Shown: one piece after another, positions 4,644 to 35,149 of the stretch
Numbering within the stretch: position 1 is the first letter of the stretch
Layout: each line of letters begins with the position of its first letter
Assembly (NCBI GenBank): GCA_028871115.1
Contig: JAGWOD010000004.1
Coordinates: forward strand, 1 to 55,132
From: Patescibacteria group bacterium
Lineage (GTDB): Bacteria; Patescibacteriota; Minisyncoccia; Phycocordibacterales; SBAW01
DNA length: 55,132 nucleotides
Direction of reading: 5' to 3'
Notes under the pieces: model-generated
What the model was told of the DNA's origin: nothing
Databases searched by the model: none
Seen by the model: the letters and a program-made list of their open reading frames with translations, nothing else
Program-made: the position numbers and the translations under genes

Positions 4644-6086
4644 TCATTTTCTGAGAAACAGTGTCTCTGGCTTTTTATTCTCTTGTATCGCGACCCATAT
4701 CTTGCGGGCCGTAGCGGGAATAACCGGTTCAAGCATAACAACGATAGCCGCGAGGCCAGCGACAAGCTCCGAGATACACTCCCTTCCTTTCTCGGGGTTC
4801 TCTTTCACCACCTTAAATGGCGCTGTTGCAGTTATTTTTTGATCAAGCTTCTGCACCGCTGTGGCAATAAGCTCCGCTGCGGCATTGACCTCAAATCGGT
4901 CGAGCGCCTCTGAGAATTCTCTCGGGAACGCGAGACGTGGAAGCGCAACAGGCTCCGGGAGATGGGACTCGGCAAGTGTGAGAATGCGTGCGGCAAGATT
5001 GCCGAGACCGTTTGCGAGATCGGCGTTATACGCATCCTTGAAGCTCTCGCGGGTAAGTTCACTGTCCTCAAACGGAGAGATGTGGCGGGCGAGATAAAAG
5101 CGCAGCGCGTCAGCCCCGTACGCTGTGATAAGTTCCTCCGGATCGATGACGTTTCCGAGACTTTTGGACATCTTCCGTCCGCCTGAAACGATGAATCCGT
5201 GCACGAGCAACGCCTTGGGAAGCGGGAGGTTCGCTGAGAGAAGCATGGCGGGCCAGATCGCCGCATGAAATCGCAAAATGTCTTTACCCATGACATGCAC
5301 CTGGGCGGGCCAGAATTGCCGGTAAAGTTCCTCATCGCTCTGGCCGAATCCAAGCGCCGTCAGATAATTCGCGAGCGCATCACACCACACATACATGACT
5401 TGGGTTTTGTCTCCCGGAACCGGAACGCCAATCGATCCTGCACTGGTGGGTCTCGAGAAACTGACATCCTGGAGCCCCTCGCGCAGGAGAGAGAGGATTT
5501 CATGCTTACGGGTCTCCGGAAAAATTGCGATCTCTCCTGATTCTATATGAGCCCGGACCGTCTCACTGTAGCGGGAGAGACGAAAGAAGTAGTTCTCTTC
5601 GCGTACCACCTTCGGTACTTCTCCGTGTTCGGGACACTTACCATCGACAAGATCCTTGGGGGTAAGAAATGCTTCATGTCCTACGCAGTAGAGTCCTTCG
5701 TATTCCTTTTTATATATATCCCCAGAGGCTTGGAGTTTTTGCCAGAGAAGCTGCGCGCCCGGCCAGTGCGCTTTTTCATCTGAGGTACGAATAAATTGAT
5801 CGTAGGAGATATCAAGCTCGGAGAAGAGATTCTTGAAATTTGCTACAACACCCTCCAAAAAATCCTCCGGGCGCTGCCCCACCGCCTTGGCTGCAGGAAG
5901 AATCTTCTGGGTGTTTTCGTCTGAACCCGTGAGGAAATAGACACGCTCTTCCTCCTCAGGAGCATAGCGGCCCTTGAGGCGATGATAGCGGGCAAGGATG
6001 TCGGAGACGGTCGTCGTATACGCGTGCCCGAGGTGGAGCTTCGCGTTGGGATAGAAAATGGGCGTCGTGATGTAGAAAGTGCGCAT
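4644..6086 (-). CDS. metG: Methionyl-tRNA synthetase, short form without the C-terminal tRNA-binding domain
   Basis: FYITTPIFYPNAKLHLGHAY (HIGH-type motif) and KMSKSLGNVIDP. At 480 aa it ends after the anticodon-binding helices. Confidence 0.95.
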   Translation of the reverse strand: MRTFYITTPIFYPNAKLHLGHAYTTTVSDILARYHRLKGRYAPEEEERVYFLTGSDENTQKILPAAKAVGQRPEDFLEGVVANFKNLFSELDISYDQFIRTSDEKAHWPGAQLLWQKLQASGDIYKKEYEGLYCVGHEAFLTPKDLVDGKCPEHGEVPKVVREENYFFRLSRYSETVRAHIESGEIAIFPETRKHEILSLLREGLQDVSFSRPTSAGSIGVPVPGDKTQVMYVWCDALANYLTALGFGQSDEELYRQFWPAQVHVMGKDILRFHAAIWPAMLLSANLPLPKALLVHGFIVSGGRKMSKSLGNVIDPEELITAYGADALRFYLARHISPFEDSELTRESFKDAYNADLANGLGNLAARILTLAESHLPEPVALPRLAFPREFSEALDRFEVNAAAELIATAVQKLDQKITATAPFKVVKENPEKGRECISELVAGLAAIVVMLEPVIPATARKIWVAIQENKKPETLFLRK

Positions 6087-6095
6087 GGCTCTTCA

Positions 6096-7160
6096 CTACT
6101 TTCCTTCCCCCTGGGAAACGGGCTTGCGCGTGCGACGATGCGATTCGATGTCGTTGACGAATTCGCGCAGGGCGGCGGCGAGCGGAACCGCGAGGAGCAC
6201 CCCTACAAATCCTGCAAGTTTGCCACCGACGATGAGAGCAAGAATAACGAGAAGCGGTGGAAGGCCGACCACCTTCTTCACGACGAGCGGATAAATGAGA
6301 TTCGATTCAAATTGCTGCACAATGATGAAAAGACCGAGTACCAGGAGCGCGAGCCCCGCTCCGCCGGTTGCAAACGCAATCGCGACTGAGGGAATAGCAG
6401 CGAGAATTTGGCCAAAGACCGGGATGAGCTCGAAGATGGCAGCGAGCACCGCAAGCAAAAGCGCATAGGGAACCTGGAGAATTGTGAGCCCGAGAAAGAG
6501 GAGAACTCCGATGATAAGCCCAAGCATCAGTTGTCCTTGCATCCACTTCCCTATCTTGTCTTTAGCCCGCTTCCAGAGTCCGAGAACGTAGCCGTGCTGC
6601 TCGACCGGGGTGATGATACGCAAAAAATCCTCTACCCCGGTCTCCTGTACGCAGAAGTAGAAAGAAAAGACAACTACTAGAATGAAGGAGACAATACCTC
6701 CGAAGAACGCCGAGAGTGCAGTAAGAAGACCCCCTGTCGATCCCCCGAGCGCCGAACTGAAGTTTCGAATAAGGTCAGCTGAAGAAAGGAGGCCTGCGAT
6801 ATCAGAGATGGGAAGTATGGAGGAAGAATCTGCGGAGAAATCAATAGAGTGGAGTGTATTGGGAAGTTGTGCGAGAAAGCTTGCCGCATCGTTGAGGACC
6901 GGCGGTAGGAAGAAGAGCACGATGCCAATAAAGATCGCGGCCACGATGAGGTATATGCAAATGATGGAGAGAATACGCGGCAGCCCCTGGCGCTCAAGCG
7001 CATGGATGCCCGGTTCCATCGCAGAGGCAATAACCACCGCGGTGAGAAGTATGAGAACGATATCGCGCAGGTACCACAGAAGCGCTGCCCCGATTATGAA
7101 AAGAATCGCGGTAAGAATAGTACCCGGGGTGATGCGCACCGTGATATCGCGCTGCGGCAT
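6096..7160 (-). CDS. AI-2E family transporter (PerM/UPF0118-like permease)
   Basis: 354 aa and multi-pass, with a characteristic C-terminal half (FELIPVFGQILAAIP...IIVQQFESNLIYPLVV). Confidence 0.85.
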   Translation of the reverse strand: MPQRDITVRITPGTILTAILFIIGAALLWYLRDIVLILLTAVVIASAMEPGIHALERQGLPRILSIICIYLIVAAIFIGIVLFFLPPVLNDAASFLAQLPNTLHSIDFSADSSSILPISDIAGLLSSADLIRNFSSALGGSTGGLLTALSAFFGGIVSFILVVVFSFYFCVQETGVEDFLRIITPVEQHGYVLGLWKRAKDKIGKWMQGQLMLGLIIGVLLFLGLTILQVPYALLLAVLAAIFELIPVFGQILAAIPSVAIAFATGGAGLALLVLGLFIIVQQFESNLIYPLVVKKVVGLPPLLVILALIVGGKLAGFVGVLLAVPLAAALREFVNDIESHRRTRKPVSQGEGK

Positions 7161-7172
7161 GGCGTAACTATA

Positions 7173-8564
7173 CTATGAGTGCCGTATTTTCTCCTGCACG
7201 TAGAAAGAAAGCTCCGCAAGCGCAACACGCTCCTGTGCCCCACTATCCCTCTCGCGCACGGTTACGGAATTATTCTCCAGAGTATCAAAATCGACCGTAA
7301 TGCAGAAGGGCGTCCCTATCTCATCTTGCCTTCGATAGCGCTTCCCGATATTGCCATTGTCATCCCAGAGCGTTTCGGGGATTTCCTTCTTAAGGGCTTC
7401 GTAGACACTTCGCGCTTTTGCAACAAGTTCGGGCTTATTTTTAAGAAGCGGAAATACTGCCACCTTGATCGGTGCTATGGATGGTTTGAATCTGAGTACC
7501 ACCCGCTTCTCGCCACCGATTTCGTCTTCGTGGTAGGCGTCGAGCATGGTGAAAAGAAGCGCCCGCCCAAGACCGCCGGAGGTTTCGATGATCCACGGCA
7601 GTATTTTTTCTCCAGAGTCAGTGGTATAGGTCATGGGCACTCCTGAATGTTCCTGGTGGCGGGCGAGATCCCAATCTCCCCGGTGGTGGATGCCCCACGC
7701 TTCCTTCCAGCCGAAGGGTGTGTGGTACTCAATATCCCAGGCGTCCTTGGCATAGTGCGCACGCTCATGCGCCTCATGCTGGCGAAACCGCAGGCGCTCC
7801 GCAGAGATGCCGAGCCCCTGGTACCAGTGCATACTCACTCCTTTCCAGTATTCATACTGCCGCCCTCCTTCCTCTATCTCTGGAGTGATGTAGTACTGCA
7901 ATTCCATTTGCTCGAATTCGCGGACACGGAAGAGAAAATTGCCCGGCACAATCTCATTGCGGAAGGCCTTTCCTATCTGGGCGATCCCGAAGGGAAGCTT
8001 CGGGTGGAATGCATCAACGACATTCTTGAAATTCACCTGTACGCCTTGGGTGATTTCACCGCGCAGATATACTTTTTCCTTCGCCCCTTCGACCGCGCCG
8101 ATGCCTGCTTCAACAAGAAGATTGAATATCTTCGGCTCCGTGAGTGGATTTCCTTCTGGGCTTTTCATCTTGAGCTCCGCCATCTTCTTTCCCATCTCTT
8201 CAAGAGAAAGATCATGTACGTCGACTCCCTGTTCTTCAAGCAGATGGTCGGCGCGATAGCGTTTGTGCGTCACCTTATCTTCGACTAAAGGATCGGTGAA
8301 TCCCTCCGTATGCCCGCTCGCCTTCCATACCTGCGGGTGCATCATGATGGATGCATCGAGGAGGTACGTGTCTTCGCGGGTATCGAGAAAAGTGTGCCGC
8401 CAATATTTCTTTATATTCTCATTGAGAAGCGCCCCCAGCGGCCCGTAGTCCCAGGTACCTGCGAGTCCACCATAAATCTCCGAACCCTGGAAAATAAACC
8501 CGCGGCGCTTGCACAGCGCGACAAGTTTCTCCATAGGGTCTCCTGAACTCTCTTTTGTTGCCAT
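7173..8564 (-). CDS. glyQS: Glycyl-tRNA synthetase, dimeric class II type
   Basis: LCKRRGFIFQGSEIYGGLAGTWDYGPLG, FRNEI and REFEQME motifs. 463 aa. Confidence 0.95.
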   Translation of the reverse strand: MATKESSGDPMEKLVALCKRRGFIFQGSEIYGGLAGTWDYGPLGALLNENIKKYWRHTFLDTREDTYLLDASIMMHPQVWKASGHTEGFTDPLVEDKVTHKRYRADHLLEEQGVDVHDLSLEEMGKKMAELKMKSPEGNPLTEPKIFNLLVEAGIGAVEGAKEKVYLRGEITQGVQVNFKNVVDAFHPKLPFGIAQIGKAFRNEIVPGNFLFRVREFEQMELQYYITPEIEEGGRQYEYWKGVSMHWYQGLGISAERLRFRQHEAHERAHYAKDAWDIEYHTPFGWKEAWGIHHRGDWDLARHQEHSGVPMTYTTDSGEKILPWIIETSGGLGRALLFTMLDAYHEDEIGGEKRVVLRFKPSIAPIKVAVFPLLKNKPELVAKARSVYEALKKEIPETLWDDNGNIGKRYRRQDEIGTPFCITVDFDTLENNSVTVRERDSGAQERVALAELSFYVQEKIRHS

Positions 8565-10623: not shown

Positions 10624-10791
10624 ATGGAATCCCGCACGCTCATCTGGATAGGCCTTTTTGTCGGCTCAACGATTGGGGGGCTCATACCTGAACTCTGGGG
10701 CGCGGGAATGTTCTCCATGTCCTCTCTATTCTTGAGTGGCGCGGGAGCGATCGCTGGTATTTGGGTCGGATTCAAGGTCTCGCGATGGTAG
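10624..10791 (+). CDS. 55-aa glycine-zipper-like small membrane protein (below the ORF-track cutoff)
   Basis: ATG at 10624 to TAG at 10789-10791: MESRTLIWIGLFVGSTIGGLIPELWGAGMFSMSSLFLSGAGAIAGIWVGFKVSRW. Two Gly-rich hydrophobic helices. It competes with a featureless 68-aa minus-strand ORF. Confidence 0.4.
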   Translation: MESRTLIWIGLFVGSTIGGLIPELWGAGMFSMSSLFLSGAGAIAGIWVGFKVSRW

Positions 10792-10859
10792 TGGGGTCGC
10801 CTTGCAGCAGCGATCATTCTCAAGTAGCGTTAGCCCCAGAATCCCTATGGAGGAACTCC

Positions 10860-11444
10860 GTGCATCTGATCCTTCCTACTACACATCCTGACCTCCGGCA
10901 GTTTGAACATTTGCCTTTGTTTTTTCTCGCGGGACCCACTGAGGGCGGCGGCAATTGGCATCAGCGGATGTTGAAGCTTCTCGCGGAGAGAGTCGGCGAC
11001 TGTATCGTTGTCGATCCAAGTTGCTACCCTTCTGGTCATCCACTAGAGCGCCAGAAAATGAAAGGCCGCGAGGGTATGTTCCCTCGTCAAACCGACTGGG
11101 AACGCTATTACCTCCACACCGCCGCTGAGAAATGGACTGCCGGGTGTATCATCTTCTGGCTGCCCGAAGAAAGTGCGGATGAACCGCGCACTGATGGAAA
11201 ACCCTACACCATGAATACGAGCGATGCGATCGGTGAGTGGAGGGGCCGTCTCATGTTCAATAGGTGCTTGCGAGTCGTCGTAGGAGCTGAGCCCAATTTC
11301 CCGGGCCTCAGCCAGATCGCTCGAAACTTCGAGATGGCGCTCGGTAATGAGTTCAAGCTCTACGACAGTATGGAAGGCGTGGTCGAGCGTGCCGCTTATT
11401 TTGCGGACGCAAGTCATTCCTTCGAGACACGCGTGCGCCGCTAA
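10860..11444 (+). CDS. Nucleoside 2-deoxyribosyltransferase-like protein (tentative family call)
   Basis: The track ORF starts at TTG 10761. An in-frame GTG at 10860 has GGAGGA 5 nt upstream and avoids overlapping the small ORF. The PLFFLAGPTEGGGNWHQ strand-loop and CIIFWLP...AIGEW pattern resemble the NDT-like fold; not verified. Confidence 0.55.
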   Translation: MHLILPTTHPDLRQFEHLPLFFLAGPTEGGGNWHQRMLKLLAERVGDCIVVDPSCYPSGHPLERQKMKGREGMFPRQTDWERYYLHTAAEKWTAGCIIFWLPEESADEPRTDGKPYTMNTSDAIGEWRGRLMFNRCLRVVVGAEPNFPGLSQIARNFEMALGNEFKLYDSMEGVVERAAYFADASHSFETRVRR

Positions 11445-11565: not shown

Positions 11566-12006
11566 GTGGGGACAGTAGTGTTCCAGCGTGCTGACCTAAA
11601 ACACGCAAGAGAGATTGCCGCTATCGCTACCGAAGCATTCCAAAACAACCGGTGGACGGAAGGGTATGTCATCCACACAATGTACCGTTACTGTGTGTAT
11701 GTTTTGGAAGAAGGTTCCGAAGCTATCGGTTGCCTTATGTCTGAGAACATGGGGCCGACGTCAGCCTACATCGCAGGTGTTGCGATCAGAGCCAACCGAC
11801 GACGGATGGGCAACGGGCGCATCCTCCTCAAGCACGCGCTCAAACGGCTCGAGGACGAAAAGAAAAAAACATTACTCTTGCATACACTTTCCACCAATAC
11901 GCCGGCAATACGCCTCTATGAGTCAATGGGCTTTAAACCAACCGGCAATAAAAAGAAATTTCCGGGAGGATCGGAAGAAATTGAGTTCATTAGAACCACC
12001 CCGTAG
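11566..12006 (+). CDS. GNAT-family N-acetyltransferase
   Basis: Acetyl-CoA motif A (VAIRANRRRMGNGRILLKHAL) and TNTPAIRLYESMGFKPTG. GTG start with GGGAGG 5 nt upstream. Confidence 0.85.
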   Translation: MGTVVFQRADLKHAREIAAIATEAFQNNRWTEGYVIHTMYRYCVYVLEEGSEAIGCLMSENMGPTSAYIAGVAIRANRRRMGNGRILLKHALKRLEDEKKKTLLLHTLSTNTPAIRLYESMGFKPTGNKKKFPGGSEEIEFIRTTP

Positions 12007-12026: not shown

Positions 12027-12608
12027 TTACAGTCCGCTCACAGAGAGCGAATCGTTGATGGCACGAATAAGGGTAGAGCGCCGCTGTGCTGCCCGAGCCG
12101 CAAGCTCAAGAGAAAGATCTTCATCAGCAATAAATGGCGCCAATTCCGCTGTCTTGGGCAGATACCCAAGCGAAAAAAGGATCCGCAACACTAAGACACA
12201 CTCGATGCTTTCGCACCCCTGAGAATCCGAAACACTTGAGAGAAGTGCGAATCCATGTGAGACATGTTCGTAGAGTTGTTGCGAGACCTCTTCGCCTTGA
12301 ATGAGGCGCACAAGGAGGCGACATACCCGCCCCGCAACAATCCGGGCACTCAAGGAAGCGCTCATGAGCGGATAGGAAATAGCATCAACTCCCGCCACCT
12401 TCCATTCGTGCCTGCCCGCTACAAGCGAAAAACGTCCACAGGTAAAGGGCTCAAGTCCATAGCGCAGTTTACTCTGCTCTCGCCGAGCGCTTTTCGCGGA
12501 AGCATAGATAAGCCCAAGTTCCCGAGTATGCAGTTGCACCAGAGTAGTAGCTTCACCGAGCCCCCGTTTCCCAAGCACAATTCCCTCAGTAGTTATCTTG
12601 CGCGTCAT
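12027..12608 (-). CDS. recO: DNA repair protein RecO (short form)
   Basis: N-terminal OB-fold pattern (EGIVLGKRGLGEATTLVQLHTRELGLIYASAKSARREQSKLRYGLEPF). ATGA start/stop overlap with ileS. Confidence 0.85.
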   Translation of the reverse strand: MTRKITTEGIVLGKRGLGEATTLVQLHTRELGLIYASAKSARREQSKLRYGLEPFTCGRFSLVAGRHEWKVAGVDAISYPLMSASLSARIVAGRVCRLLVRLIQGEEVSQQLYEHVSHGFALLSSVSDSQGCESIECVLVLRILFSLGYLPKTAELAPFIADEDLSLELAARAAQRRSTLIRAINDSLSVSGL

Positions 12609-15600
12609 GAAAACTCAAAAACAAGCGGGAAGGAAATATCTCCAATATGCTCTTCCCCTCCCTCTTTGGAGGCGAGAGAAGCGAGACCTGTCGCAGCGAT
12701 GATCTGCGCTTTGAATTTAGTAAGAAATGCTATTCCCTGAACATCCGTTACAACAGAGAGAGATGGTCGATCAATAACGGATAGGCCATGAGTTTTGCGT
12801 GCGTCTTGGATAGCACGCACAACATCCCGAAGCACTCCTTCTTCACGCAGCTCGGGAGTGATTTCCGTATCAAGCCACACCTCTTCCTTGAGGTTCGGAT
12901 TATGTGCCACACGCTTAACGTTTACTTCCTCAGAGAGGATCGTTCGTACTGCCTCATCCTCAGGAAGATCGCGCGCTTCAAGAAGCCCAAGGGGCTGGCG
13001 CACGCGAATGCCTGCACGCTCCCGCACCTCAAGCGCGCGGGAAGCGATAGCGCGGATAAGCGTCATATCGGCAAGGATGGTGTTATCGACCGCTCTCTCT
13101 GCGGGCCAGGGCTCAAGATGCACGCTCTCTTTTTCTCCGCCCGCTCCTGTATAGATGCTCTCGGCAATAAAAGGCATGATCGGCGCAATAAGCATGGCGA
13201 GAGTGAGGAGTGTCTCGCGCTGAGTGCCAAGAGCGTATTGTTTGTCCGCTTCGTCTTTGCCGCGCACCCGCTCGCGGGAGCGACGCACGTACCATGTCGA
13301 ATAGTCGTCAACAAACATCCGCACTGCCCGACAGGCACGAGGCGTATCATATGCGTCGAGCGCATCGGTTACTTCACGCATGAGCTCTCCCAAGCGGGAG
13401 CGCGCCCACCGATCGAGCGGGTTGGAGCTATCCGCCGCACGAATCCCAGGAGTATATTCGTGTTTATATAATTCGAAAAATTTAAAGGAGTTCCAAAGAA
13501 TTCCGATGACGCGGTTGTGCACCTCCCGAATGTCCTCGTCACGGAACGCGAGATCTTCGCCGTGCATGATGGGCCCTGCCATAAGATAAAAACGCAATGC
13601 GTCAGCTCCAAAACGCTCGAGAAGCATCAGAGGATCGGTGTAATTGCCTTTCGATTTGCTCATTTTTGAGCCGTCAGCGGCAAGAACCGTCCCCGTCGAG
13701 ACGACGTTGCGAAATGCATGCGAATTGAAGAGCGCCACGCTTATGGCGTGCATGTAGTAAAACCAGGTGCGTGTTTGGGCAATATACTCAGCGATAAAAT
13801 CGCCTGGGAAACGTCTCTTGAATTCCTTTTCATGATCGAACGGGTAGTGAAGCTCCGCGAATGGCATCGCGCCCGATTCCACCCAGCAGTCGATGACTTC
13901 GGGGATACGCTTGTACTCTCTCCCCTCATCATCAAGAAGCACAATCGAGTCGGTATAGGGGCGGTGCAGGTCGAGTTCAAATTTTTTATTGACCGGCAAG
14001 GGCACAAACGGAATCTCCCGTACTTCGGCAGGACCTGCGGTCATTCCCTCAGCAAGCGTAAATATCTCATTTCCTGAAAGGCCAGCAGCTGCCGTAAAGA
14101 GGGATGAGAATGCGACCTTGTGGGAGACAATGAGAACAATCGAGTTCTGGTAGCGCTCCTCATAGTCATACAGAGCCTGACCGAAGCGTATTTTTATCTC
14201 TTCAAGGCTTTCCCCTCCCTTTGGGAGGGCCGTATACCAATCGGGCTGTTCGATGAAATCGAAGTACTTCTTTCTCGGCTGTTCGTTAAATTCTCCAAAT
14301 CTAATTTCTTTCAACCGCTCATCGAAAACAATTTCTCCCTCGGGAACCCCGAGTTCTCTCGCCATGATTTCCGCCGTCTGCTGAGCGCGCAGAATCGGCG
14401 AAGCAATGATAACAAGCGGCATTCCGCGGGGAATTGCTCCAGCGGCTTCCCGCACCTGCTCCCGACCTTTTTCAGTGAGCGGATGCTTCCCTTCAAAATC
14501 ATCGGAATAGACGCCTTGAAGCATGTGGGTCGCTTCTCCGTGGCGCATAAGAAAATAGCGATTTCCAGAGCGCTTCGTGCGCCTCTTGAGCTCCTCGAGC
14601 GACCCGATGATCATCACACGATTTCCCTTCTTCTCTTTCCAGATAGGAAGCGGGGAGGCCCAAAATCGATTACGGGAGATGGTCCAATCAGGAGCTCCCT
14701 CGACAATGTTGCGGAAGCGTCCTTCTTTGAGGTGTTCGGGGACCCACCGGATACGTTCATTTTCTTCAAGCATGCGCTCCTTCACTGTTTTCTTCTCCCC
14801 CTTGGGGGCTGCATTAATCGCAATGAACCACGATGCTACGGCGTCATAGATAAGCGGCGTTCCGCAACGGTAGCAGTGAGGATAGGAGTGCGTGTGCATC
14901 TCGCGCTTGAAGAGAAGCCCCCGATGTTCGAGATCCTCTTTGATCACTTTTTCTGCCTTTTTTATATATTGGCCTTGAATGAAGGCGGGGGCCTCATGAG
15001 TGTAGTGTGCGCCGGGGTCAAGAAGCTGTACCATAGGGAGCCCTTCTTTCTCTCCGAGCTTGAAATCATCCTCTCCGTACATCACGGCGGTATGCACTAT
15101 GCCGGTGCCTTCATGGGTCGTAACAAACTCGGCAGGGAGTACGACATACTTTTTTCCGTGGTGAGCACTCACCGAAGGAATCTCGTAGAGAGGTTCGTAT
15201 TCACGCCCGGTAAGTTTTGCACCAGAAACTTTTTCAAGAATACGCGCGCCCGGAGCAACGGCTTCCACCCGATCGGCCGCAAGCCAGAGAGATCCCTCAG
15301 GAGTCTCTACCTTTACATACTGAACCTCCGGATTCACCGCGAGCGCGACATTGCCGGGGAGAGTCCAGGGAGTCGTCGTCCATGCAAGAAAATATTCGTT
15401 TTCCTTTCCTTTTGCTTTGAATCGCACCGTGAGCGCCTCTTCAGTGATGTCCTTATACGTGTTATCCATGGCGATCTCCGCCTTCGCAAGCGGGGTCTCG
15501 CAATGAGGGCAGTACATGAGTACTTTGCGGCCTTCGTAAAGGAGTCCTTTTTCCCAGAGGGACTTGAGAGCCCACCATACCGATTCGATATAGGAGTTAT

Positions 15601-16096
15601 CCATCGTCTTGTAGGAATTACGGAAATCCACCCACCGGCCGATGCGCTCGATATATTTCTCCCATTCACGATCAAACTGCATGACACTTGAACGTGCCGT
15701 CTCATTGAAGACATCGATGCCGAGCGTGAGTATGTCTTTCTTCGTTTTGAGACCGAGTTTTTTCTCAACGTAGGTTTCAATCGGCAAGCCATGACAATCC
15801 CATCCCCATCGTCGCTCTACTCGGTAACCACGCATCGTCTTATACCGACCGACGGCGTCTTTTATCGAGGAGCCCAAAATGTGTCCGATGTGCGGAAGAC
15901 CGTTAGCGAAGGGCGGACCGTCATAAAACACAAACTCCCCTTCCGGGGCCTCTTTAGCAACCGATTTATCAAAAATAGTATGCTCTTTCCAGAACGCGAG
16001 TATTTCTTCTTCGCGTTTGGTCGTTTCTGATTTTGCGGGCATATCAGGACCCGTCTTCAGCTTTACCATGTACGTGCCAATGATATGACACTCCAT
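12605..16096 (-). CDS. ileS: Isoleucyl-tRNA synthetase (type 2-like) carrying an internal histidine-phosphatase domain
   Basis: PPFANGLPHIGH (HIGH), the editing-domain signature WTTTPWTLPGN, WTISRNRFWASPLPIW and KMSKSKGN. The ORF opens at 16096. Met19 (nt 16042, MPAKSETTKREEEILAFW) is the more likely start, by comparison with other type-2 N-termini. Confidence 0.95.
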   Translation of the reverse strand: MECHIIGTYMVKLKTGPDMPAKSETTKREEEILAFWKEHTIFDKSVAKEAPEGEFVFYDGPPFANGLPHIGHILGSSIKDAVGRYKTMRGYRVERRWGWDCHGLPIETYVEKKLGLKTKKDILTLGIDVFNETARSSVMQFDREWEKYIERIGRWVDFRNSYKTMDNSYIESVWWALKSLWEKGLLYEGRKVLMYCPHCETPLAKAEIAMDNTYKDITEEALTVRFKAKGKENEYFLAWTTTPWTLPGNVALAVNPEVQYVKVETPEGSLWLAADRVEAVAPGARILEKVSGAKLTGREYEPLYEIPSVSAHHGKKYVVLPAEFVTTHEGTGIVHTAVMYGEDDFKLGEKEGLPMVQLLDPGAHYTHEAPAFIQGQYIKKAEKVIKEDLEHRGLLFKREMHTHSYPHCYRCGTPLIYDAVASWFIAINAAPKGEKKTVKERMLEENERIRWVPEHLKEGRFRNIVEGAPDWTISRNRFWASPLPIWKEKKGNRVMIIGSLEELKRRTKRSGNRYFLMRHGEATHMLQGVYSDDFEGKHPLTEKGREQVREAAGAIPRGMPLVIIASPILRAQQTAEIMARELGVPEGEIVFDERLKEIRFGEFNEQPRKKYFDFIEQPDWYTALPKGGESLEEIKIRFGQALYDYEERYQNSIVLIVSHKVAFSSLFTAAAGLSGNEIFTLAEGMTAGPAEVREIPFVPLPVNKKFELDLHRPYTDSIVLLDDEGREYKRIPEVIDCWVESGAMPFAELHYPFDHEKEFKRRFPGDFIAEYIAQTRTWFYYMHAISVALFNSHAFRNVVSTGTVLAADGSKMSKSKGNYTDPLMLLERFGADALRFYLMAGPIMHGEDLAFRDEDIREVHNRVIGILWNSFKFFELYKHEYTPGIRAADSSNPLDRWARSRLGELMREVTDALDAYDTPRACRAVRMFVDDYSTWYVRRSRERVRGKDEADKQYALGTQRETLLTLAMLIAPIMPFIAESIYTGAGGEKESVHLEPWPAERAVDNTILADMTLIRAIASRALEVRERAGIRVRQPLGLLEARDLPEDEAVRTILSEEVNVKRVAHNPNLKEEVWLDTEITPELREEGVLRDVVRAIQDARKTHGLSVIDRPSLSVVTDVQGIAFLTKFKAQIIAATGLASLASKEGGEEHIGDISFPLVFEFS
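13982..14569 (-). other. In-frame histidine phosphatase (PGAM/CobC-like, branch 1) domain inserted in IleRS (about residues 510-705)
   Basis: YFLMRHGEATH (RHG motif), LTEKGREQ, IIASPILRAQQTAEIMA, ERLKEIRFGEFNEQ, GGESLEE and IVLIVSHKVAFSS (distal His). The insert is flanked by IIGSLEELKRR and FELDLHRPYTDS of IleRS. Confidence 0.7.
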
Positions 16097-16352: not shown

Positions 16353-18041
16353 CTACATCTCCTCGGGCGCAGCGCAGCCGAGAAAGAAGAGCCCGTTACA
16401 TAGCGTCTGGCGTACTGCATCGACCAGTACAAGCCGGGAGGCTTCTCTACTGCCTCCATCAAGCACTCTTACTTGCCCATACCATGAATTGAATGCTCCA
16501 GAAAGCTCTGCGAGGTAGTGGACAAGGTAATGTGGTTCGTATTCCTCAGCGGCACGAGCCACTATTTCAGGAAAGCGGGGTAGTAATCGCTGGACCTCTG
16601 CCGCCGCTTCCTCTAGCTCCTCACCAAAGGAGGCCTTTGGAGCGGGTAGTACGCCTTTTTCTTTTGCCTTTTTGAGGATCGATACACAGCGCGTATGTGC
16701 ATACTGTAGATAGGGCCCTGAATCCCCCTCAAGAGAGAGAGACTTTTCTTCATCGAAGATAATATTCTTTCCGCTACTTTGTTTGAGTACGCTATATTTT
16801 ATGGCGGCTACGGCGATTTCTTCCGCCACTCTCTCCTTCTCGAGAGGCTCACGTCCTGTCATCTTGTCTTTCGCGGCAAGAATCATTTCTTTGATGAGCG
16901 CTTCTCCAGTGATGACATTTCCTTTGCGCGAGGACATTTTGCCGCTCGCAAGCTGCATCATGCCGTGAGGAAGATGCTCGAAGACGCCCCGCCAGGCTGG
17001 GTGGATTGAGAACAGTGCCGCGAAGACTACTTTGAAGTAATCACTCTGCTCGTTTGCCGTGATTGTTATCGAGTGATCAAATTTCACTCGTTCGCGCTTT
17101 AATTCCGCAAGCCCCAACTCCTTGGCCTCGTAGGTAGGCGTTCCCATGCGGGTAATAAACACGCGTGTGTGAAGACCCATCGCCTCACCTCGAAACACCA
17201 TCGCCCCATCGCTCTCTTCGAAAAATTCCTTGTGTGCACGGACAATTGCAATGCCGCGCGGGCCCGTTTCACTTTCAAAAAAATATTCGTCAAATTTCGT
17301 ACCGAGGAGCTGGTAGATTTCCTCGAAATGCTTCAGGGAGAGAGCGCGACCGTATTCGTAGAGCGTCTCAACCTTCGGATCGCTGTGTTCATAAATCGCT
17401 TTGTTGAGAATATCAATATCACCTCGAGCATGTTCATCGCTCTCATAGGCGCGATCCCCTTCTACATAGGCCTTTCCAATTTCTGCTATGGTGGGCTTCT
17501 CTACCCCTTCTCTCAGAAGAGCAAAAAGAGCCTTCGCCACGTGAGGCCCTACGTCTCCTTGATAATTGGCGCGGATAACCATTGCTCCCGTCGCTTCAAG
17601 AAGCCTCGCGACACTTTCTCCGAGCGCGTTGCTCATGAGGTGCCCGATGTGGAACTCTTTGAACGGATTGGGCTGCGTGTATTCGACCATGATCCGCTTC
17701 CTGACATTAGAAGTATTGCCGCCCCAGGCTTTTCCTGTTGGGGCAATTTGGGAGATTGTATTGTTAAAAAAATCCTGACTTAGCGTGAAGTTTATGAATC
17801 CTGGCGGAGCAATATCTATACGCGCAACAGCAGCAAGAGCACTCTCTTGAAGAGAAGCTCGCAGCGCTTCGGCAACTTCGCGCGGTTTCTTCCCGAGCGC
17901 CTTGGCAGCGCTGAGCGCAGCATTGGTCGCATAGTCGGCGTTCGTCTCTGCGGGCGGGTACTCAAGAGAAAATGCACTGTCCCCTGCCCCTAGGGCTTCG
18001 AGCGCTTCCCGCAAAGCGTTCTCTATATCTTCGCGAACCAT
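16353..18041 (-). CDS. argS: Arginyl-tRNA synthetase
   Basis: NPFKEFHIGHLMSNALGES (HIGH), the MSSRKGN loop and the C-terminal DALR-type anticodon-binding region. 562 aa. Confidence 0.95.
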   Translation of the reverse strand: MVREDIENALREALEALGAGDSAFSLEYPPAETNADYATNAALSAAKALGKKPREVAEALRASLQESALAAVARIDIAPPGFINFTLSQDFFNNTISQIAPTGKAWGGNTSNVRKRIMVEYTQPNPFKEFHIGHLMSNALGESVARLLEATGAMVIRANYQGDVGPHVAKALFALLREGVEKPTIAEIGKAYVEGDRAYESDEHARGDIDILNKAIYEHSDPKVETLYEYGRALSLKHFEEIYQLLGTKFDEYFFESETGPRGIAIVRAHKEFFEESDGAMVFRGEAMGLHTRVFITRMGTPTYEAKELGLAELKRERVKFDHSITITANEQSDYFKVVFAALFSIHPAWRGVFEHLPHGMMQLASGKMSSRKGNVITGEALIKEMILAAKDKMTGREPLEKERVAEEIAVAAIKYSVLKQSSGKNIIFDEEKSLSLEGDSGPYLQYAHTRCVSILKKAKEKGVLPAPKASFGEELEEAAAEVQRLLPRFPEIVARAAEEYEPHYLVHYLAELSGAFNSWYGQVRVLDGGSREASRLVLVDAVRQTLCNGLFFLGCAAPEEM

Positions 18042-19278: not shown

Positions 19279-20550
19279 TTATGCAAAGCGCTCAGGAATC
19301 GGAAACGTCGTGGATAACTCCTTTATTGCTTCTTGGGTGCTTTTGCGGACTTGTTGGTCTTTCGGATGCTTGAGGATATCCACCATAGACTGAGCAACAC
19401 GGAGAGATTCTTTTTCTTTCAATCCCCTCGTTGTTATTGCAGGAGTTCCAAAACGAATGCCCGAAGGATCCATCGGGCTTCGAGTATCATTTGCAATAGC
19501 ATTCTTATTAAGGGTAATACCTGCCTCATCAAGGATTTCTTCTGCTTCTTTCCCCGAAATTCCCAGCGAACCATATACATCTGCAAGCAGTAAGTGGTTG
19601 TCGGTACCCCCCGCAAGAAGTCGTATACCCTCACGTTTGAACACATCCTCCATCGCCTTCGCGTTACGCAGAATTTGGAGAGCGTATGTCTTAAACGATG
19701 GGCGCAGCGCTTCGCCGAAGGCTACCGCTTTTGCGGCAATGGTGTGCATATGGGGCCCGCCTTGAAAACCCGGGAACACGGTCTTGTCTATTTTTCTTGC
19801 AATTTCTTCACTCTCGCGCGTGAGGATCATCCCTCCGCGGGGACCACGCAGTGTCTTATGGGTGGTCGTGGTCATGACATCAAACCCATAGTCGAAGGGG
19901 TTCTTCGCGGCCTTCCCTGCTATGAGCCCGGCAATGTGCGCAATATCCATGACCGCATAGGCTCCGACGTCCCGCGCAATGTCGACAAATTTTTTATAGT
20001 CGAGCTCGCGTGGATACGCTGAGAAACCTGCAAGTACGATTTTCGGCCGAACTTTCTTTGCGATTGCGTGCATTTCCTCATAATCAATCTCACCTGTTTC
20101 TATATTGCGCATTTTATAGCGCACAAAATTGAAGATTTTGGTGATGTAGGTGACCGGATGCCCGTGCGTGAGGTGGCCGCCGTGGGAGAGGTCCATCCCG
20201 AGCACCGTGTCTCCAGGTTCCAGAAGCGCAAAATACATCGCGATGTTGGCGTTAGCTCCTCCGAGCGGCTGGACGTTTGCGTACCCAGCTCCGAAAAGCT
20301 TTTTCGCCCGCTCGAGCGCAATCATCTCGACCGCATCCGTGAACTCCTGACCGCCGTAGTAGCGCTTGCCGGGGTATCCTTCTGAGTATTTGTTGGTGAG
20401 AATGGAGCCACTGGCCTCGCGCACAGCGCGCGAAACATAATTCTCCGAAGGAATGAGTTCGAGCCCTAACGCTTCTCTATTCTCTTCACCCTGAAGCGCT
20501 TTATATATTTCGGAGTCCTCTTCTGCTATATGTGCGTAAAAATCTTCCAT
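19279..20550 (-). CDS. glyA: Serine hydroxymethyltransferase
   Basis: LIPSENY, GYPGKRYYGG and TTTTHKTLRGPRGG (PLP-lysine motif). Confidence 0.97.
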   Translation of the reverse strand: MEDFYAHIAEEDSEIYKALQGEENREALGLELIPSENYVSRAVREASGSILTNKYSEGYPGKRYYGGQEFTDAVEMIALERAKKLFGAGYANVQPLGGANANIAMYFALLEPGDTVLGMDLSHGGHLTHGHPVTYITKIFNFVRYKMRNIETGEIDYEEMHAIAKKVRPKIVLAGFSAYPRELDYKKFVDIARDVGAYAVMDIAHIAGLIAGKAAKNPFDYGFDVMTTTTHKTLRGPRGGMILTRESEEIARKIDKTVFPGFQGGPHMHTIAAKAVAFGEALRPSFKTYALQILRNAKAMEDVFKREGIRLLAGGTDNHLLLADVYGSLGISGKEAEEILDEAGITLNKNAIANDTRSPMDPSGIRFGTPAITTRGLKEKESLRVAQSMVDILKHPKDQQVRKSTQEAIKELSTTFPIPERFA

Positions 20551-20607
20551 GGTCGTAAGTCCAATGAGTAATCGTGACCGACGGAAGATACTAGACCATA
20601 TACAGGA

Positions 20608-21558
20608 TTATACGCTGTGGAGTTTCTTGTTGTACCCACCTGAGACCACAAGATCGGCCTTGATAGTCGTGTGTGGTTCGTAGCCGTTGAGCTCGACATA
20701 CTCCGGCTTGAACGAATCGAGTGAGTTGAAAGCATGCGTGAAGGAAATGGTTGGGAACATTTTAGGTTCGCGCGCGAGCTGTTCGCGGGCTGATTCCCTG
20801 TGTGTTTCGTATATATGGAGGTCGCCAAACGTATGGACGAACTCTCCGGGCTCGCGACCGAGTATCTTGGCAATGATGATAGTAAGAAGCGCATAGCTCG
20901 CGATGTTGAAAGGAACCCCGAGAAATACATCGGCGCTGCGTTGATAAAGCTGCAGACATACCCGCCCATGTTTTATGTTGAGTTGGTAGAGATTGTGGCA
21001 AATGGGAAAGCGTGCCGCCTGTCCGGGAGCCGCCATCGCGTAGAGATACTCAGGATTCCAGGAGGATACGAGCGTATTGTGAGCGTCCGGATCCTTCCGC
21101 AATTCCTCTATCGCCCAAGAGAGTTGATCCACTCTTCTGCCGTCCTGCGCCTCCCAGCGTCGCCAAAGTTCCCCGTAGATATGGGGCAGCTCGCCATACT
21201 CTCGTGCGAACGCTTTATCAGTCTTTATTTTCTCGATGAACGCTTCCTTCGTCAGGGTATTGCCATGCTTCTCTTGGTAGATTTTGTAGGGATAGTCGTC
21301 CCAAATATGGACGTCGTGGTCAACGAGATACTTTATGTTGCTCTGACCAGAGAGAAACCAATAAAGTTCATGGAGCACTCCTTTCCAGTAGACCCGCTTG
21401 GTTGTGAGGAGTGGGAACCCCTCAGAGAGATCGAACCGCATCTGCCGCCCAAATACGCTATAGGTTTTAGTGCCGTGATCCTTGTCGACTTGTTCTTCAC
21501 CCCGCTCGAGCGTTTCGCGCAGAAGGTCGAGATATTGCTGTTCGGGGTGGCGTTTCAT
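20608..21558 (-). CDS. thyA: Thymidylate synthase (ThyA type)
   Basis: EQQYLDLL, FGRQMRFDL, GFPLLTTKR, LHELYWFLSG, PICHNLYQL (catalytic Cys) and LYQRSADVFLGVPFNIASYALL. Confidence 0.97.
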   Translation of the reverse strand: MKRHPEQQYLDLLRETLERGEEQVDKDHGTKTYSVFGRQMRFDLSEGFPLLTTKRVYWKGVLHELYWFLSGQSNIKYLVDHDVHIWDDYPYKIYQEKHGNTLTKEAFIEKIKTDKAFAREYGELPHIYGELWRRWEAQDGRRVDQLSWAIEELRKDPDAHNTLVSSWNPEYLYAMAAPGQAARFPICHNLYQLNIKHGRVCLQLYQRSADVFLGVPFNIASYALLTIIIAKILGREPGEFVHTFGDLHIYETHRESAREQLAREPKMFPTISFTHAFNSLDSFKPEYVELNGYEPHTTIKADLVVSGGYNKKLHSV

Positions 21559-21564
21559 ATGAGG

Positions 21565-22134
21565 TTACTTCGCTGCCTTTGTTTTTGGGATCTTCCGCTT
21601 CTCTTCGACGTACCCCTTGATATTGTCGGCGGAATAGCGCCCGGTATCCTTGTAGCTCTGGCGCGGAGGCGAGGAGAGTTTTGAGAATGTGAGCTGCGCG
21701 ATTGCCATCCCGGGGTGAAGGACTATAGGTACGTTGTTGAGATTGCAGAGCTCGAGGGCAACATTGAGGAAATGTCCGGGGTTGATGAGCGCCGCGGAAT
21801 TGTGAACCAAGAGTCCGATGCGCGCGAGCGAACTTTTTCCGTTGACTTCAATGAGGTAACTGTCGGAGCCAAAATAGTCTTTTGAATAGCCGAGGATGGA
21901 GACACCTGGATGCAGAACAAATACGTCCCCGTCGGCAACCGTTACTTCCGTGGTTTTGGGGAACACTTTCTTTACCGGATCGATATAGGTTGAGGAATGG
22001 GCATCATTCACGAAGAAGGTATTGCCGAGGAGAATATCGTAGCTTGCAGGCTGGAGGCGCTTCTCGTCGAAAGGCTTGAGGATTATTTCCCCTTTCTCTA
22101 CCGCCTTCTTAATATCGACATCTGAAAGCATCAT
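21565..22134 (-). CDS. dcd: dCTP deaminase
   Basis: MMLSDVDIKKAVEKGEIILKPFD...LQPASYDILLG. I chose the start at ATG 22134, one nt after the stop of the upstream CYTH gene. The track ORF extends to 22248 and would overlap that gene. Confidence 0.9.
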   Translation of the reverse strand: MMLSDVDIKKAVEKGEIILKPFDEKRLQPASYDILLGNTFFVNDAHSSTYIDPVKKVFPKTTEVTVADGDVFVLHPGVSILGYSKDYFGSDSYLIEVNGKSSLARIGLLVHNSAALINPGHFLNVALELCNLNNVPIVLHPGMAIAQLTFSKLSSPPRQSYKDTGRYSADNIKGYVEEKRKIPKTKAAK

Positions 22135-22135
22135 G

Positions 22136-22813
22136 TTAGGCGACAGTGAATACCTTATCCGTTCCGTAATATTCCTGCCAATGCGCATTATAGAAAGAAA
22201 ACATGCGTTCAAGTCGATCCTGCGGAAGCTCCTGCACATCAAGTTCACGCATGAGAGCCCGTATTTCTTGGCGCGCAGCTTCGACAGCTTCTCTGTCTTC
22301 TACCATCTTTTCGAACTCGGCGAGCCAGCCATACCCCGCGTTTTTATCAAGGCAGATATTAATTCCTCGACAGAGATATTCCTCACGGTCACGAGACCAC
22401 TTTGCTTGGTAGATGAACCCGGAACCGAGAATGAGAGCGTCGAGAGCGTCGAGTGGAATATCTACCTTTTCGTCGAGCTCAATGCGCGAAATGCCGTTGT
22501 CGCTTGAGCTGTCGTCGATTGAGGCCTTAACGACAAGATACACCCCGGAATCTTTTTGACGCGTGCGCACTGAGAAAGTTTTCGCTTTTCTTGCAAGATC
22601 ATCAAACTGGATACATTTATCCTCCTCAAGGCAGCGTCGTGCAACCGATTCAGCAAGCGCATCAAGATTTCCTCCTTGGAAGTAATGGTTGAGCTGAGAA
22701 TTGTGGGCAACGAGTTTGGTAGCAGGATCAAGTCGAAATATTCGCTCGCGCAACGCATCCGCGTTCTCTTTGCTCCCAAGAAGCGACTTTATCTCTACTT
22801 CATAGCTGTGCAT
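22136..22813 (-). CDS. CYTH-domain (triphosphate tunnel metalloenzyme) protein
   Basis: N-terminal ExExK signature (YEVEIKSLL). Size and charged-residue pattern are compatible with CyaB/ThTPase-like proteins. It is the first gene of the dcd-thyA-glyA string. Confidence 0.6.
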   Translation of the reverse strand: MHSYEVEIKSLLGSKENADALRERIFRLDPATKLVAHNSQLNHYFQGGNLDALAESVARRCLEEDKCIQFDDLARKAKTFSVRTRQKDSGVYLVVKASIDDSSSDNGISRIELDEKVDIPLDALDALILGSGFIYQAKWSRDREEYLCRGINICLDKNAGYGWLAEFEKMVEDREAVEAARQEIRALMRELDVQELPQDRLERMFSFYNAHWQEYYGTDKVFTVA

Positions 22814-22891
22814 GAAAACATTTTAGCCTGCATGCCGCTGAAGGCAAAATGTGGGCGAAAGTAATTCTTTGTGGTGTGATATATTTCCCGC

Positions 22892-23392
22892 ATGCATAAA
22901 CCGAGAGTAAGTATGGTGGCCGCAATCGGAAAGAACCGAGTACTCGGAAAAGGAGGTGGCCTCCTCTGGCATATCCCAGAAGATCTCAAGCGTTTCAAAC
23001 GCCTCACCCTCGGCCACCCGATCATCATGGGACGCAAAACATTTGAATCAATCGCCCCCTATCTCAAAGGACCCTTGCCGGGACGCACTAACATCGTTCT
23101 AACGCGCGACCCCACATGGGGCTATGAAGGAGTCTTCACCTGCAAAAGCTTAGAGGAAGCGCTCAAGAAGGCAGGTGAGTTCACCAATGAAGAAATCTTC
23201 ATCGGCGGGGGTGGAGAATTATATACACAAGCCCTTCCCTATGCGGATAAACTCTATCTCACGATTGTGAAGGATGAAAAGGAAGGAGATGCTTTTTTCC
23301 CACCATATGAAAGATACTTCACTAAAAAAGTATTCGAGGAAGAACATGAGTGGAACGGGGTGAAATACACATGGATTGATTTTGAACGCTAA
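22892..23392 (+). CDS. folA: Dihydrofolate reductase
   Basis: MVAAIGKNRVLGKGGGLLWHIPEDLKRFKRLTLGHPIIMGRKTFESI and IGGGELY. The true start may be Met8 (nt 22913). Confidence 0.9.
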   Translation: MHKPRVSMVAAIGKNRVLGKGGGLLWHIPEDLKRFKRLTLGHPIIMGRKTFESIAPYLKGPLPGRTNIVLTRDPTWGYEGVFTCKSLEEALKKAGEFTNEEIFIGGGGELYTQALPYADKLYLTIVKDEKEGDAFFPPYERYFTKKVFEEEHEWNGVKYTWIDFER

Positions 23393-32015: not shown

Positions 32016-32042
32016 TGTAGCAAACTAGACTCAAAAATTTTG

Positions 32043-32115
32043 GGCGACCGCCGGGAATTGAACCCGGATCAGCAGGACCACAATCTGCGGTGTTAACCGT
32101 TACACCACGGTCGCC
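32043..32115 (-). tRNA. tRNA-His (anticodon GTG) with a genomically encoded G-1
   Basis: Cloverleaf by eye: G-1, acceptor GCGACCG/CGGTCGC, D-stem GTGT/ACAC, anticodon loop TTGTGGT, T-arm CCGGG-TTCAATT-CCCGG, C73. No encoded CCA. Confidence 0.9.
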
Positions 32116-32224
32116 ATGAACACCACTATATACCACTTCCCCGCTAGGGATGGAAGAAAAAGGCTACCCCCATGTCCGAAAACAACGAAAGGCCCGGGGA
32201 AAGTATTTCCAAAGTATTTTTCTG

Positions 32225-32306
32225 TGCCCAGGAGAGGACTCGAACCTCCAAGCCTTGCGGCATATGCACCTCAAGCATACGCGTATACCAATTCCGCCAC
32301 CTGGGC
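32225..32306 (-). tRNA. tRNA-Leu (anticodon GAG), long variable arm
   Basis: Acceptor GCCCAGG/CCTGGGC, anticodon stem-loop TATGC-TTGAGGT-GCATA, long variable arm, T-loop TTCGAGT. No encoded CCA. Confidence 0.9.
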
Positions 32307-32334
32307 ATTTCTGCGAACCTCTACAACTTACAAT

Positions 32335-32365
32335 AAAAAAGGAGGCCCGCAAAGCGCAGGCCTCC
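32335..32365 (-). terminator. Intrinsic terminator after rplS
   Basis: Minus strand GGAGGCC-tgcgctttgcg-GGCCTCC followed by TTTTTT. Confidence 0.7.
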
Positions 32366-32389
32366 AGAAAATTTCTTTATCAGCACTTA

Positions 32390-32869: not shown

Positions 32870-32905
32870 TTGGGCGAGTGTAGCACAGGGACACCTCCCC
32901 CGCAA

Positions 32906-33652: not shown

Positions 33653-33653
33653 A

Positions 33654-34946: not shown

Positions 34947-34957
34947 ACGCTCCTCTC

Positions 34958-35033: not shown

Positions 35034-35034
35034 G

Positions 35035-35106: not shown

Positions 35107-35149
35107 ACTTCCACGCTACACCAAAACGCGAGGGATAAAAAGCGAAGCG

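Follow-up and report, generated by a model that had tools for sequence, protein, structure and literature searches.

A 55,132-nucleotide stretch from a Patescibacteria group bacterium (assembly GCA_028871115.1, contig JAGWOD010000004.1, positions 1 to 55,132; here called the window) carries ileS, the gene for isoleucyl-tRNA synthetase (IleRS), as a fusion that certainly contains a histidine phosphatase domain nested in the synthetase. The open reading frame (ORF) lies on the minus strand at 12605-16096 and runs uninterrupted for 1163 codons plus a stop; the start of the called gene product (P0001, 1154 aa) is nine codons downstream of the ORF start. An initial annotation, made from the letters alone, had placed an apparently intact, "PGAM-like" histidine phosphatase at positions 13982-14569, residues 510-705 of the ORF, and had quoted the motifs RHGE, SPILRAQQT, LKEIRFGE and VSHKV for the insert and WTISRNRFWASPLPIW, ELDLHRPY and KMSKS for its surroundings. 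The coordinates and residue numbers agreed with ours, and all seven motifs were found in the translation in the order given. GC content was flat over both insert junctions.

Judged from its sequence, the host is an ordinary, functional housekeeping type-2 IleRS, with HIGH, KMSKS, the editing site and the anticodon domains intact. The match to the ileS equivalog TIGR00392 fell in two stretches split by the insert, and Pfam analysis of the whole protein detected tRNA-synt_1 (E 8e-122), Anticodon_1 and DUF5915, with His_Phos_1 between the two tRNA-synt_1 halves. As first described, the insert is in frame within a single ORF and flanked, with no stop, by IleRS sequence. Type-2 membership was evident from ARD3/DUF5915 (PF19302, the type-2 C-terminal domain; 51 bits against a cutoff of 27), which stands in place of the zinc-binding treble clef, and from the nearest structures, which were IleRS2; the best Protein Data Bank (PDB) matches by both sequence and fold were IleRS2 and the T. 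thermophilus and yeast enzymes. A full-length AlphaFold2 model was confident (mean predicted local distance difference test score, pLDDT, 90.4; predicted template-modelling score, pTM, 0.85), and its core superposed on IleRS2 structures with target-normalised Foldseek TM-scores of 0.76-0.85, only IleRS, ValRS (valyl-tRNA synthetase) and LeuRS (leucyl-tRNA synthetase) chains being matched. HIGH, KMSKS and the editing motifs (TTTPWT and GTG.VH...D) were invariant or nearly so in 119 fused homologues. The protein shares its catalytic, editing, anticodon-binding and DUF5915 organisation with the solved IleRS2 enzymes of P. megaterium (8C8U/8C8V), T. thermophilus (1ILE) and yeast (7D5C/8WND). It differs from them in three respects: a phosphatase of about 200 aa takes the place of a linker of about 8 aa between two zinc-knuckle hairpins, four Cys are lost, and the INS subdomain (about 80 aa, ARD2; residues ~848-926 of the 8C8U chain) has no counterpart in its C-terminal region (12608-12883). 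INS has been lost repeatedly in prokaryotes according to a 2026 preprint.

The place of insertion was defined by alignment to P. megaterium IleRS2 (8c8u), in which query residues 22-506 matched chain residues 7-477 and query residues 708-1063 matched chain residues 486-847. From this gap, the insert spans residues 507-707, and about 200 residues stand where the solved enzyme has a linker of about 8. Non-Cys residues stand opposite both Cys pairs (eCegC and tCpvC) of the 8c8u zinc knuckles, in agreement with the earlier statement that this junction is elsewhere a short, Cys-bearing linker and that the Cys are absent here. Within the Rossmann/HUP catalytic domain, the phosphatase, an autonomous domain of ~190 residues, thus interrupts a hairpin at the surface that forms a small zinc knuckle in other IleRS enzymes. 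The insert consists of the histidine phosphatase domain and short linkers (KRSGN.. on the N-terminal side and ..PFVPLPVNKKF on the C-terminal side), which were modelled in the full-length prediction at pLDDT of about 96-97, and the junction residues are conserved among fused homologues. We considered and rejected an intein or mobile element in the window protein, since a Pfam scan of the whole fusion detected no Hint, intein, LAGLIDADG or homing-endonuclease domain, the residue that follows the conserved P-x-N junction (+1) varies and is not a conserved Cys, Ser or Thr of the kind needed for splicing, and the phosphatase fold fills the whole insert.

Several lines of evidence bore out the claim that the phosphatase domain is intact. 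When segment 13982-14569 was excised and scanned alone, its only Pfam match was His_Phos_1 (E 7.1e-29, 101.3 bits; the gathering cutoff of PF00300 is 21.7 bits). An AlphaFold2 model of the segment folded as a confident domain (pLDDT 90, pTM 0.88), as a check suggested with the initial annotation had called for. Its best Foldseek matches were CobC, GpgP, PspA, PhoE and TIGAR, with E values of 5e-13 to 1e-10 and TM-scores of 0.66-0.77 (0.69-0.77 for the first four), and the longer cofactor-dependent mutases (dPGM) ranked lower, with root-mean-square deviations of 6.6-8.3 Å. The insert fell below the cutoffs of all dPGM equivalogs (NF038349, 83 against 225 bits; NF002901, 50 against 261; NF002339, 29 against 316) and also of the CobC, PspA and SixA equivalogs (TIGR03162, 62.3 against 162.9; NF045917, 50.3 against 350; TIGR00249, 37.4 against 74.5). 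By eye, the W-R-R-S substrate motif of E. coli dPGM, which we take to be mutase-specific, appears to be absent from the insert. The domain is a short (~200-aa) branch-1 phosphatase of the PhoE/CobC/PspA type and not a true mutase. The label "PGAM-like" therefore holds for the branch-1 histidine phosphatase assignment only; because the dPGM cutoffs failed and phosphatases of about 200 aa match best, it should not be read as mutase.

All five catalytic residues of the family (R518, H519, R570, E597 and H659) are present (Table 1), and E597 aligns with the Glu of the L-x-E-x-x-x-G motif conserved in PhoE and CobC. Of 141 fully aligned domain copies, 132 have the complete R/H/R/E/H set; in six of the other nine, D stands in place of E. 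Together with E629, these residues are 94-100% conserved, while the mean pairwise identity of the insert is 42%. On these grounds the nested phosphatase is probably active. The position of the conserved Asn in RHGExxxN is occupied by Met in the window copy, and Met at this position is common to the closest relatives (RHGEATHM).

Table 1. Features of the ileS fusion and of the genes that flank it (window coordinates; residues numbered from the first codon of the ORF).
Feature	Residues	Position	Strand	Evidence or remark
IleRS-phosphatase fusion, complete ORF	1-1163	12605..16096	-	ORF list; TIGR00392 (ileS) 818 bits, cutoff 621.4
IleRS N-terminal part	1-506	14579..16096	-	aligns to 8c8u residues 7-477; first Rossmann/HUP half and CP1 editing domain
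HIGH	69-72	15881-15892	-	class I signature
TTTPWT, CP1 editing domain	240-245	15362-15379	-	editing motif
Strand WTISRNRFWASPLPIW	471-486	in IleRS N-terminal part	-	motif located in translation
Inserted segment	507-707	13976..14578	-	gap against solved type-2 IleRS
Pfam His_Phos_1 (PF00300)	515-679	14060..14554	-	E 2.3e-27, 96.4 bits, whole protein
RHG motif (R518, H519, G520; RHGE 518-521)	518-520	14537..14545	-	R and H in 153/153 aligned copies
M525, at the conserved Asn of RHGExxxN	525	14522-14524	-	Asn in 135/153 aligned copies
R570 of S-P-x-x-R-x-x-x-T (SPILRAQQT 566-574), phosphate-binding Arg	570	14387..14389	-	R in 161/162 copies
E597 of L-x-E-x-x-x-G (LKEIRFGE 595-602), predicted general acid	597	14306..14308	-	E in 155, D in 6 of 163 copies
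H659, distal catalytic His (VSHKV 657-661)	659	14120..14122	-	H in 152/153 copies
IleRS C-terminal part	708-1163	12608..13975	-	Pfam, 8c8u alignment, motifs
ELDLHRPY	707-714	in IleRS C-terminal part	-	
Active-site strand EVIDCWVESG	733-742	in IleRS C-terminal part	-	
KMSKS	811-815	13652-13666	-	class I signature
Anticodon-binding domain	895-1036	in IleRS C-terminal part	-	
Type-2 C-terminal domain DUF5915	1072-1137	in IleRS C-terminal part	-	
recO		12027-12608	-	adjoins ileS; recO start shares 4 bases with ileS stop
argS		16353-18041	-	other ileS neighbour

The fusion is the standard IleRS of a large clade of the candidate phyla radiation (CPR) and not a peculiarity of one genome. The best 120 homologues (54-63% identity, 1091-1238 aa), from metagenome-assembled genomes (MAGs) named Kaiserbacteria, Paceibacterota, Parcubacteria and Minisyncoccia, all had the same Pfam combination. 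A scan of GTDB species-representative genomes with the insert alignment confirmed at least 587 loci in CPR of the Paceibacteria/Parcubacteria type, among them Nomurabacteria and Parcubacteria genomes deposited in 2015; a search with the insert alone, another of the suggested checks, thus found it in the IleRS of related genomes. In 80 related loci from independent assemblies, which are also the basis of the synteny counts below, one stop-free frame covered IleRS-N, insert and IleRS-C in 79. The exception, in the Paceibacterota MAG WB02no19_35_22 (locus L045, ~4719-8040), has its N-terminal part in another frame and lacks hidden Markov model (HMM) positions ~358-447, probably through a frameshift, a sequencing error or decay to a pseudogene. 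We rejected a chimeric assembly in view of the flat GC content, the 79 of 80 single frames and the at least 587 species genomes. Mean pairwise identity was 42% for the insert and 65% for the core, and the two divergences were correlated (r=0.68). The phosphatase has been inherited vertically with the synthetase over a large CPR clade, and the invariance of the synthetase motifs, together with retention of the catalytic set despite the faster evolution of the insert, indicates two active enzymes under purifying selection. Fusion genes were labelled inconsistently by automatic annotation, as "hypothetical protein", "class I tRNA ligase family protein" or "GNAT family N-acetyltransferase".

We searched 1.84 billion cluster representatives with the insert alone and obtained 5782 matches at E<=1e-3 and 414 at E<=1e-10; the best 150 were sorted by local HMMs and then by Pfam and NCBIfam. 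Most of these 150 were IleRS, whole or fragmentary, that bear the insert where the window protein has it. Some IleRS, such as P0259 (1468 aa), carry a tandem phosphatase pair at this site. In others, such as P0158 and P0185, the site is empty, and copies lie in the loop after ...HYPFEN and in the loop before the anticodon-binding domain; in P0254 the loop after ...HYPFEN holds a serine hydrolase. P0251, whose phosphatase lies at the corresponding position, is a genuine ValRS (NF004349, 948 bits against 704), and the ValRS fragment P0123 contains four copies. About 45-50 of the best 120 homologues of the ValRS fusion have the phosphatase; they come from Magasanikbacteria, Falkowbacteria and genomes named "Patescibacteria group". 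Close ValRS relatives at 55-60% identity are without the domain. The ValRS set with the domain comprised P0251, P0123, P0206 and the homologues P0279-P0336, and the 80 related loci included no ValRS. Public pipelines already output "valyl-tRNA synthetase/broad specificity phosphatase PhoE". The architecture was called unusual when first noted, which is correct in comparison with solved IleRS2 enzymes; it is not rare, being standard in a large CPR clade, and some relatives already bear automatic synthetase/phosphatase labels.

More elaborate proteins were found among homologues of P0158 from Gracilibacteria, Peregrinibacteria and Peribacteria. These IleRS reach 1859 aa, and His_Phos_1 is present in ~105 of the 120 listed, often with GNAT, DUF559, an AAA_33/zeta-like P-loop kinase, a serine hydrolase or an IS200-type Y1 transposase-like domain. 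For the AAA_33 kinase, the best PDB match was the RNA-repair kinase Pnkp1 (E 8e-4) and the best NCBIfam match was seryl-tRNA(Sec) kinase (PSTK), at 38 bits and far under the cutoff. One and the same loop holds His_Phos in one lineage (P0158) and a HAD phosphatase resembling phosphoglycolate phosphatase/PpaX in another (P0457), and one P0158-type homologue has two HAD phosphatase stretches and no His_Phos. Mosaic IleRS of these three lineages (for example P0158, P0185, P0254, P0398, P0410, P0451, P0457, P0474 and P0480) have one or two His_Phos copies each and reuse three or four loops; a few of their close relatives are plain IleRS of ~1030-1100 aa. Across IleRS loops and ValRS, nested copies number one to four per protein, and the catalytic set is kept in every copy of the multi-insert proteins. 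The copies group by site within a lineage, which argues that the insertions are old and vertically inherited rather than recently shuffled. Genuine free tandem doubles also exist (~420 aa, for example P0212). Several top matches of ~200 aa are probably pieces of longer genes rather than free-standing proteins, as with P0145, which falls into one 90% cluster with a protein of 723 aa, and no particular free-standing gene therefore stands out as the source of the insert.

Parts of this architecture have counterparts elsewhere. PhoE/YhfR (1H2E, 1EBB), CobC (6E4B, 6NRU), PspA (4IJ5) and GpgP Rv2419c (4PZ9) have the same fold and length class at 21-26% identity; their catalytic constellation (R-H-G / R / E / H) and their cap motif (G-E-x...R) are those of the insert. 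Unlike the nested insert, these enzymes are free-standing; CobC is an alpha-ribazole-5'-phosphatase and PspA a phosphoserine phosphatase. A curated precedent for a foreign enzyme domain in IleRS is NF040702 (ileS_w_GNAT, [quoted passage not shown]); the GNAT-bearing IleRS of Gracilibacteria and Peregrinibacteria usually also carry His_Phos. The window protein does not belong to this family (300 bits against a cutoff of 1999) and has no GNAT Pfam match, and NCBIfam contains no model for a phosphatase-bearing IleRS. The second-best NCBIfam match of the insert, at 75 bits, was the Rv2228c-type RNase H/acid phosphatase (NF005567), which likewise combines a nucleic-acid enzyme with a CobC-like histidine phosphatase; however, it is fused end to end rather than nested, has another partner enzyme and lies far off in score (cutoff 326). 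T4 and bacterial Pnkp, which heal RNA ends, offer a functional analogy only: the fused phosphatase, joined in some relatives by a P-loop kinase, sits on a tRNA-handling protein. The phosphatase of Pnkp is of the HAD or calcineurin type and not a histidine phosphatase, the kinase likeness is marginal, and we saw no ligase partner.

Non-catalytic domains appended to aminoacyl-tRNA synthetases are familiar. A full second enzyme nested in the catalytic domain of a bacterial housekeeping synthetase, its active site intact over a class-level radiation, lies outside the described repertoire. The initial annotation knew of no description of such an architecture, and our literature search, over papers not behind a subscription, likewise found no histidine phosphatase described in any aminoacyl-tRNA synthetase. 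The domains named in a structural and phylogenetic survey of IleRS from February 2026 are HUP, CP, ED, ARD1-3, INS and ZBD alone, with no phosphatase and no CPR (10.64898/2026.02.03.703510), and a 2026 review of the phylum is silent on phosphatase-bearing IleRS. The phosphatase-in-IleRS architecture thus appears to be undescribed, although the sequences have been public since 2015 and multi-domain bifunctional synthetases as such are known.

We favor a model, to which we assign a probability of roughly 0.55, in which one polypeptide holds two enzymes: a type-2 IleRS and an active phosphomonoesterase. Of the roles first suggested for the insert, a phosphorylated tRNA 3' end or a nucleotide by-product as target and regulation of the synthetase, all stay candidates. 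By the mechanism of the family, H519 would attack the phosphomonoester to give a phospho-histidine intermediate, R518, R570 and H659 would hold the phosphate, and E597 would protonate the leaving group and then activate water. We tentatively propose, at somewhat short of even odds, that the substrate is a small soluble phosphomonoester such as a nucleotide, sugar-acid or amino-acid phosphate, and not an intermediate of aminoacylation; we place this somewhat ahead of a tRNA end as substrate. This proposal is based on the cap region, which aligns with PhoE nearly without gaps, on the nearest structures, all of which act on metabolites, and on the mostly acidic inserts (median isoelectric point 5.7), which speak only weakly against RNA binding. 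The loops used and the number of copies also vary, and the HAD domain at one loop is PpaX-like. IleRS is probably a permissive, constitutively expressed scaffold in a tiny genome, a role that would explain why equivalent and unrelated small-molecule enzymes occur at several loops, and in several copies, in related synthetases. Four observations weigh against this model. A passenger enzyme leaves unexplained why, in a search of 1.84 billion representatives, its closest relatives are hosted almost exclusively by IleRS and ValRS, two tRNA-binding sister enzymes. The phosphatase co-occurs in relatives with a P-loop kinase whose weak best matches are RNA or tRNA kinases (Pnkp1, PSTK). M525 replaces a phosphate-contacting Asn next to the nucleophile motif, and no specific phosphatase equivalog was matched, the dPGM, CobC, PspA and SixA models all being far under cutoff.

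The first two of these observations would be better accommodated if the phosphatase were directed at tRNA, a less probable reading but the strongest competitor. It would act in cis on RNA held by the synthetase, removing a 2'- or 3'-phosphate, a phosphate derived from a cyclic phosphate or a toxin-installed (pyro)phosphate at the tRNA 3' end, or acting on a phospho-aminoacyl-tRNA, as an end-healing or quality-control step that enables charging of tRNA(Ile). Besides the near-restriction to IleRS and its sister ValRS, the rigid, conserved junctions and high whole-protein pTM suggest a fixed geometry, the Gracilibacteria/Peregrinibacteria IleRS pair the phosphatase with the AAA_33 kinase (Pnkp1, E 8e-4; PSTK, 38 bits), and His_Phos and HAD phosphatases replace one another at one loop in different lineages (P0158, P0457); a kinase plus a phosphatase is the logic of T4 Pnkp. 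However, we know of no branch-1 histidine phosphatase that acts on polynucleotide ends, the mostly acidic inserts keep the small-molecule phosphatase cap, and the kinase similarities are far under the family cutoffs. A precise cis geometry would fit poorly with a domain that occurs at three or four different loops at least and in as many as four copies, and no other class I synthetase, although each would depend on this service too, was seen as a host among the best 150 representatives, a list saturated by IleRS and ValRS. A broader version, which we consider doubtful, is that CPR IleRS and ValRS are platforms with nested repair or quality-control enzymes for their own tRNAs, on which blocking phosphates would be removed in cis before charging, from the acceptor ends of tRNA that is damaged or modified by a toxin or from phospho-aminoacyl-tRNA; the phosphatase would work alone here and be teamed with Pnkp/PSTK-like kinases, GNATs and hydrolases in Gracilibacteria. 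If true, tRNA repair or defense against toxins would gain a new layer integrated into the synthetase, and the domain would be the first branch-1 histidine phosphatase directed at polynucleotides.

The remaining explanations are less probable again. In one, which is improbable, the nested hydrolase, with the GNAT, kinase and esterase of relatives, would be a built-in countermeasure that inactivates a natural inhibitor or reverses a toxin modification of IleRS or ValRS; it could act on an aminoacyl-adenylate mimic that is phosphorylated, or on a synthetase that has itself been phosphorylated. The nested domain types (acetyltransferase, phosphatases, P-loop/zeta-like kinase, serine hydrolase) resemble the antibiotic-modifying and toxin/antitoxin repertoire, IleRS is a classic natural-product target, and GNAT, peptidase and phosphoramidase enzymes detoxify aminoacyl-nucleotide antibiotics. 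Type-2 IleRS has moreover been linked to mupirocin resistance (10.64898/2026.02.03.703510). However, the insert is class-wide and vertically inherited, unlike resistance determinants, which are usually patchy, and the neighbors of ileS are core housekeeping genes. We also know of no phosphomonoester inhibitor of IleRS. Slightly less probable still is a catalytically silent module, a phosphatase fold kept as a structural or ligand-sensing regulatory replacement of the lost zinc knuckle. The insert does occupy the very place of the lost Cys4 knuckle, its junctions are conserved and the window copy has the unusual Asn to Met change near the nucleophile, but conservation of the catalytic residues and E629 so far above the background of the insert is typical of active enzymes, not pseudo-enzymes, and eukaryotic type-2 IleRS, to judge by the human sequence, appears to be without the knuckle Cys and to need no replacement domain. 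An artefactual or selfish origin, whether by chimeric assembly, as an intein or through mobile DNA that inserted recently, has next to nothing in its favor in the window: in-frame DUF559 nuclease-like and IS200-type transposase-like domains in some distant IleRS relatives do indicate that mobile DNA has entered this gene family, but the frame is the same in nearly all related assemblies and the insert recurs across species, with flat GC, with divergence that tracks the host, and with neither intein or homing-endonuclease domains nor a conserved splice residue.

That the phosphatase recurs in Paceibacteria IleRS, in Magasanikbacteria and Falkowbacteria ValRS and in the multi-domain mosaics (up to ~1860 aa) of Gracilibacteria/Peregrinibacteria suggests that selection has tied the hydrolysis of phosphate esters to these two sister synthetases. 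CPR bacteria make up a large share of bacterial diversity and are biochemically almost unstudied, and the fusion could reveal either a new step of tRNA repair or quality control or a general rule for how, in minimal genomes, essential proteins come to house enzymes in loops that tolerate them.

The argS-ileS-recO order of the window is kept in related loci, with argS in 67 and recO in 71 of the 80. A free-standing GNAT acetyltransferase gene (11566-12006, plus strand) lies ~600 bp from ileS and looked suggestive, as GNAT domains are nested in the IleRS of other CPR lineages; we rejected it as a Rosetta-stone partner of ileS because a homologue lies beside ileS in none of the 80 related loci. 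We found no second copy of the phosphatase domain in the 55-kb window, and no glycolytic, pyrophosphatase or serB-like genes among its annotated ORFs, although 55 kb is too short to draw a conclusion from this. An open frame of 523 codons antisense to ileS (14120-15691, plus strand), which had no independent support, is most likely a by-product of ileS codon composition.

Elsewhere in the window, three ORFs encoding 211-227 aa (10761-11444, plus strand; 1845-2480 and 46773-47420, minus strand) had no Pfam match, and the first of them also had no homologue in the 80 related loci. A compact thymidylate/folate cluster at 19279-23392 comprises glyA (serine hydroxymethyltransferase), thyA, a dCTP deaminase-like gene, a CYTH-domain ORF that overlaps the deaminase-like gene by ~110 bases, and folA on the opposite strand. 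Eight tRNA genes lie within 32042-46741, including adjacent Val-Arg and Arg-Arg pairs. The window also contains type IV pilus genes (PilM-like, 36600-37724; T2SSE ATPase, 50422-52200) and an Nramp transporter gene, and its tRNA, pilus and Nramp content is typical of CPR bacteria.

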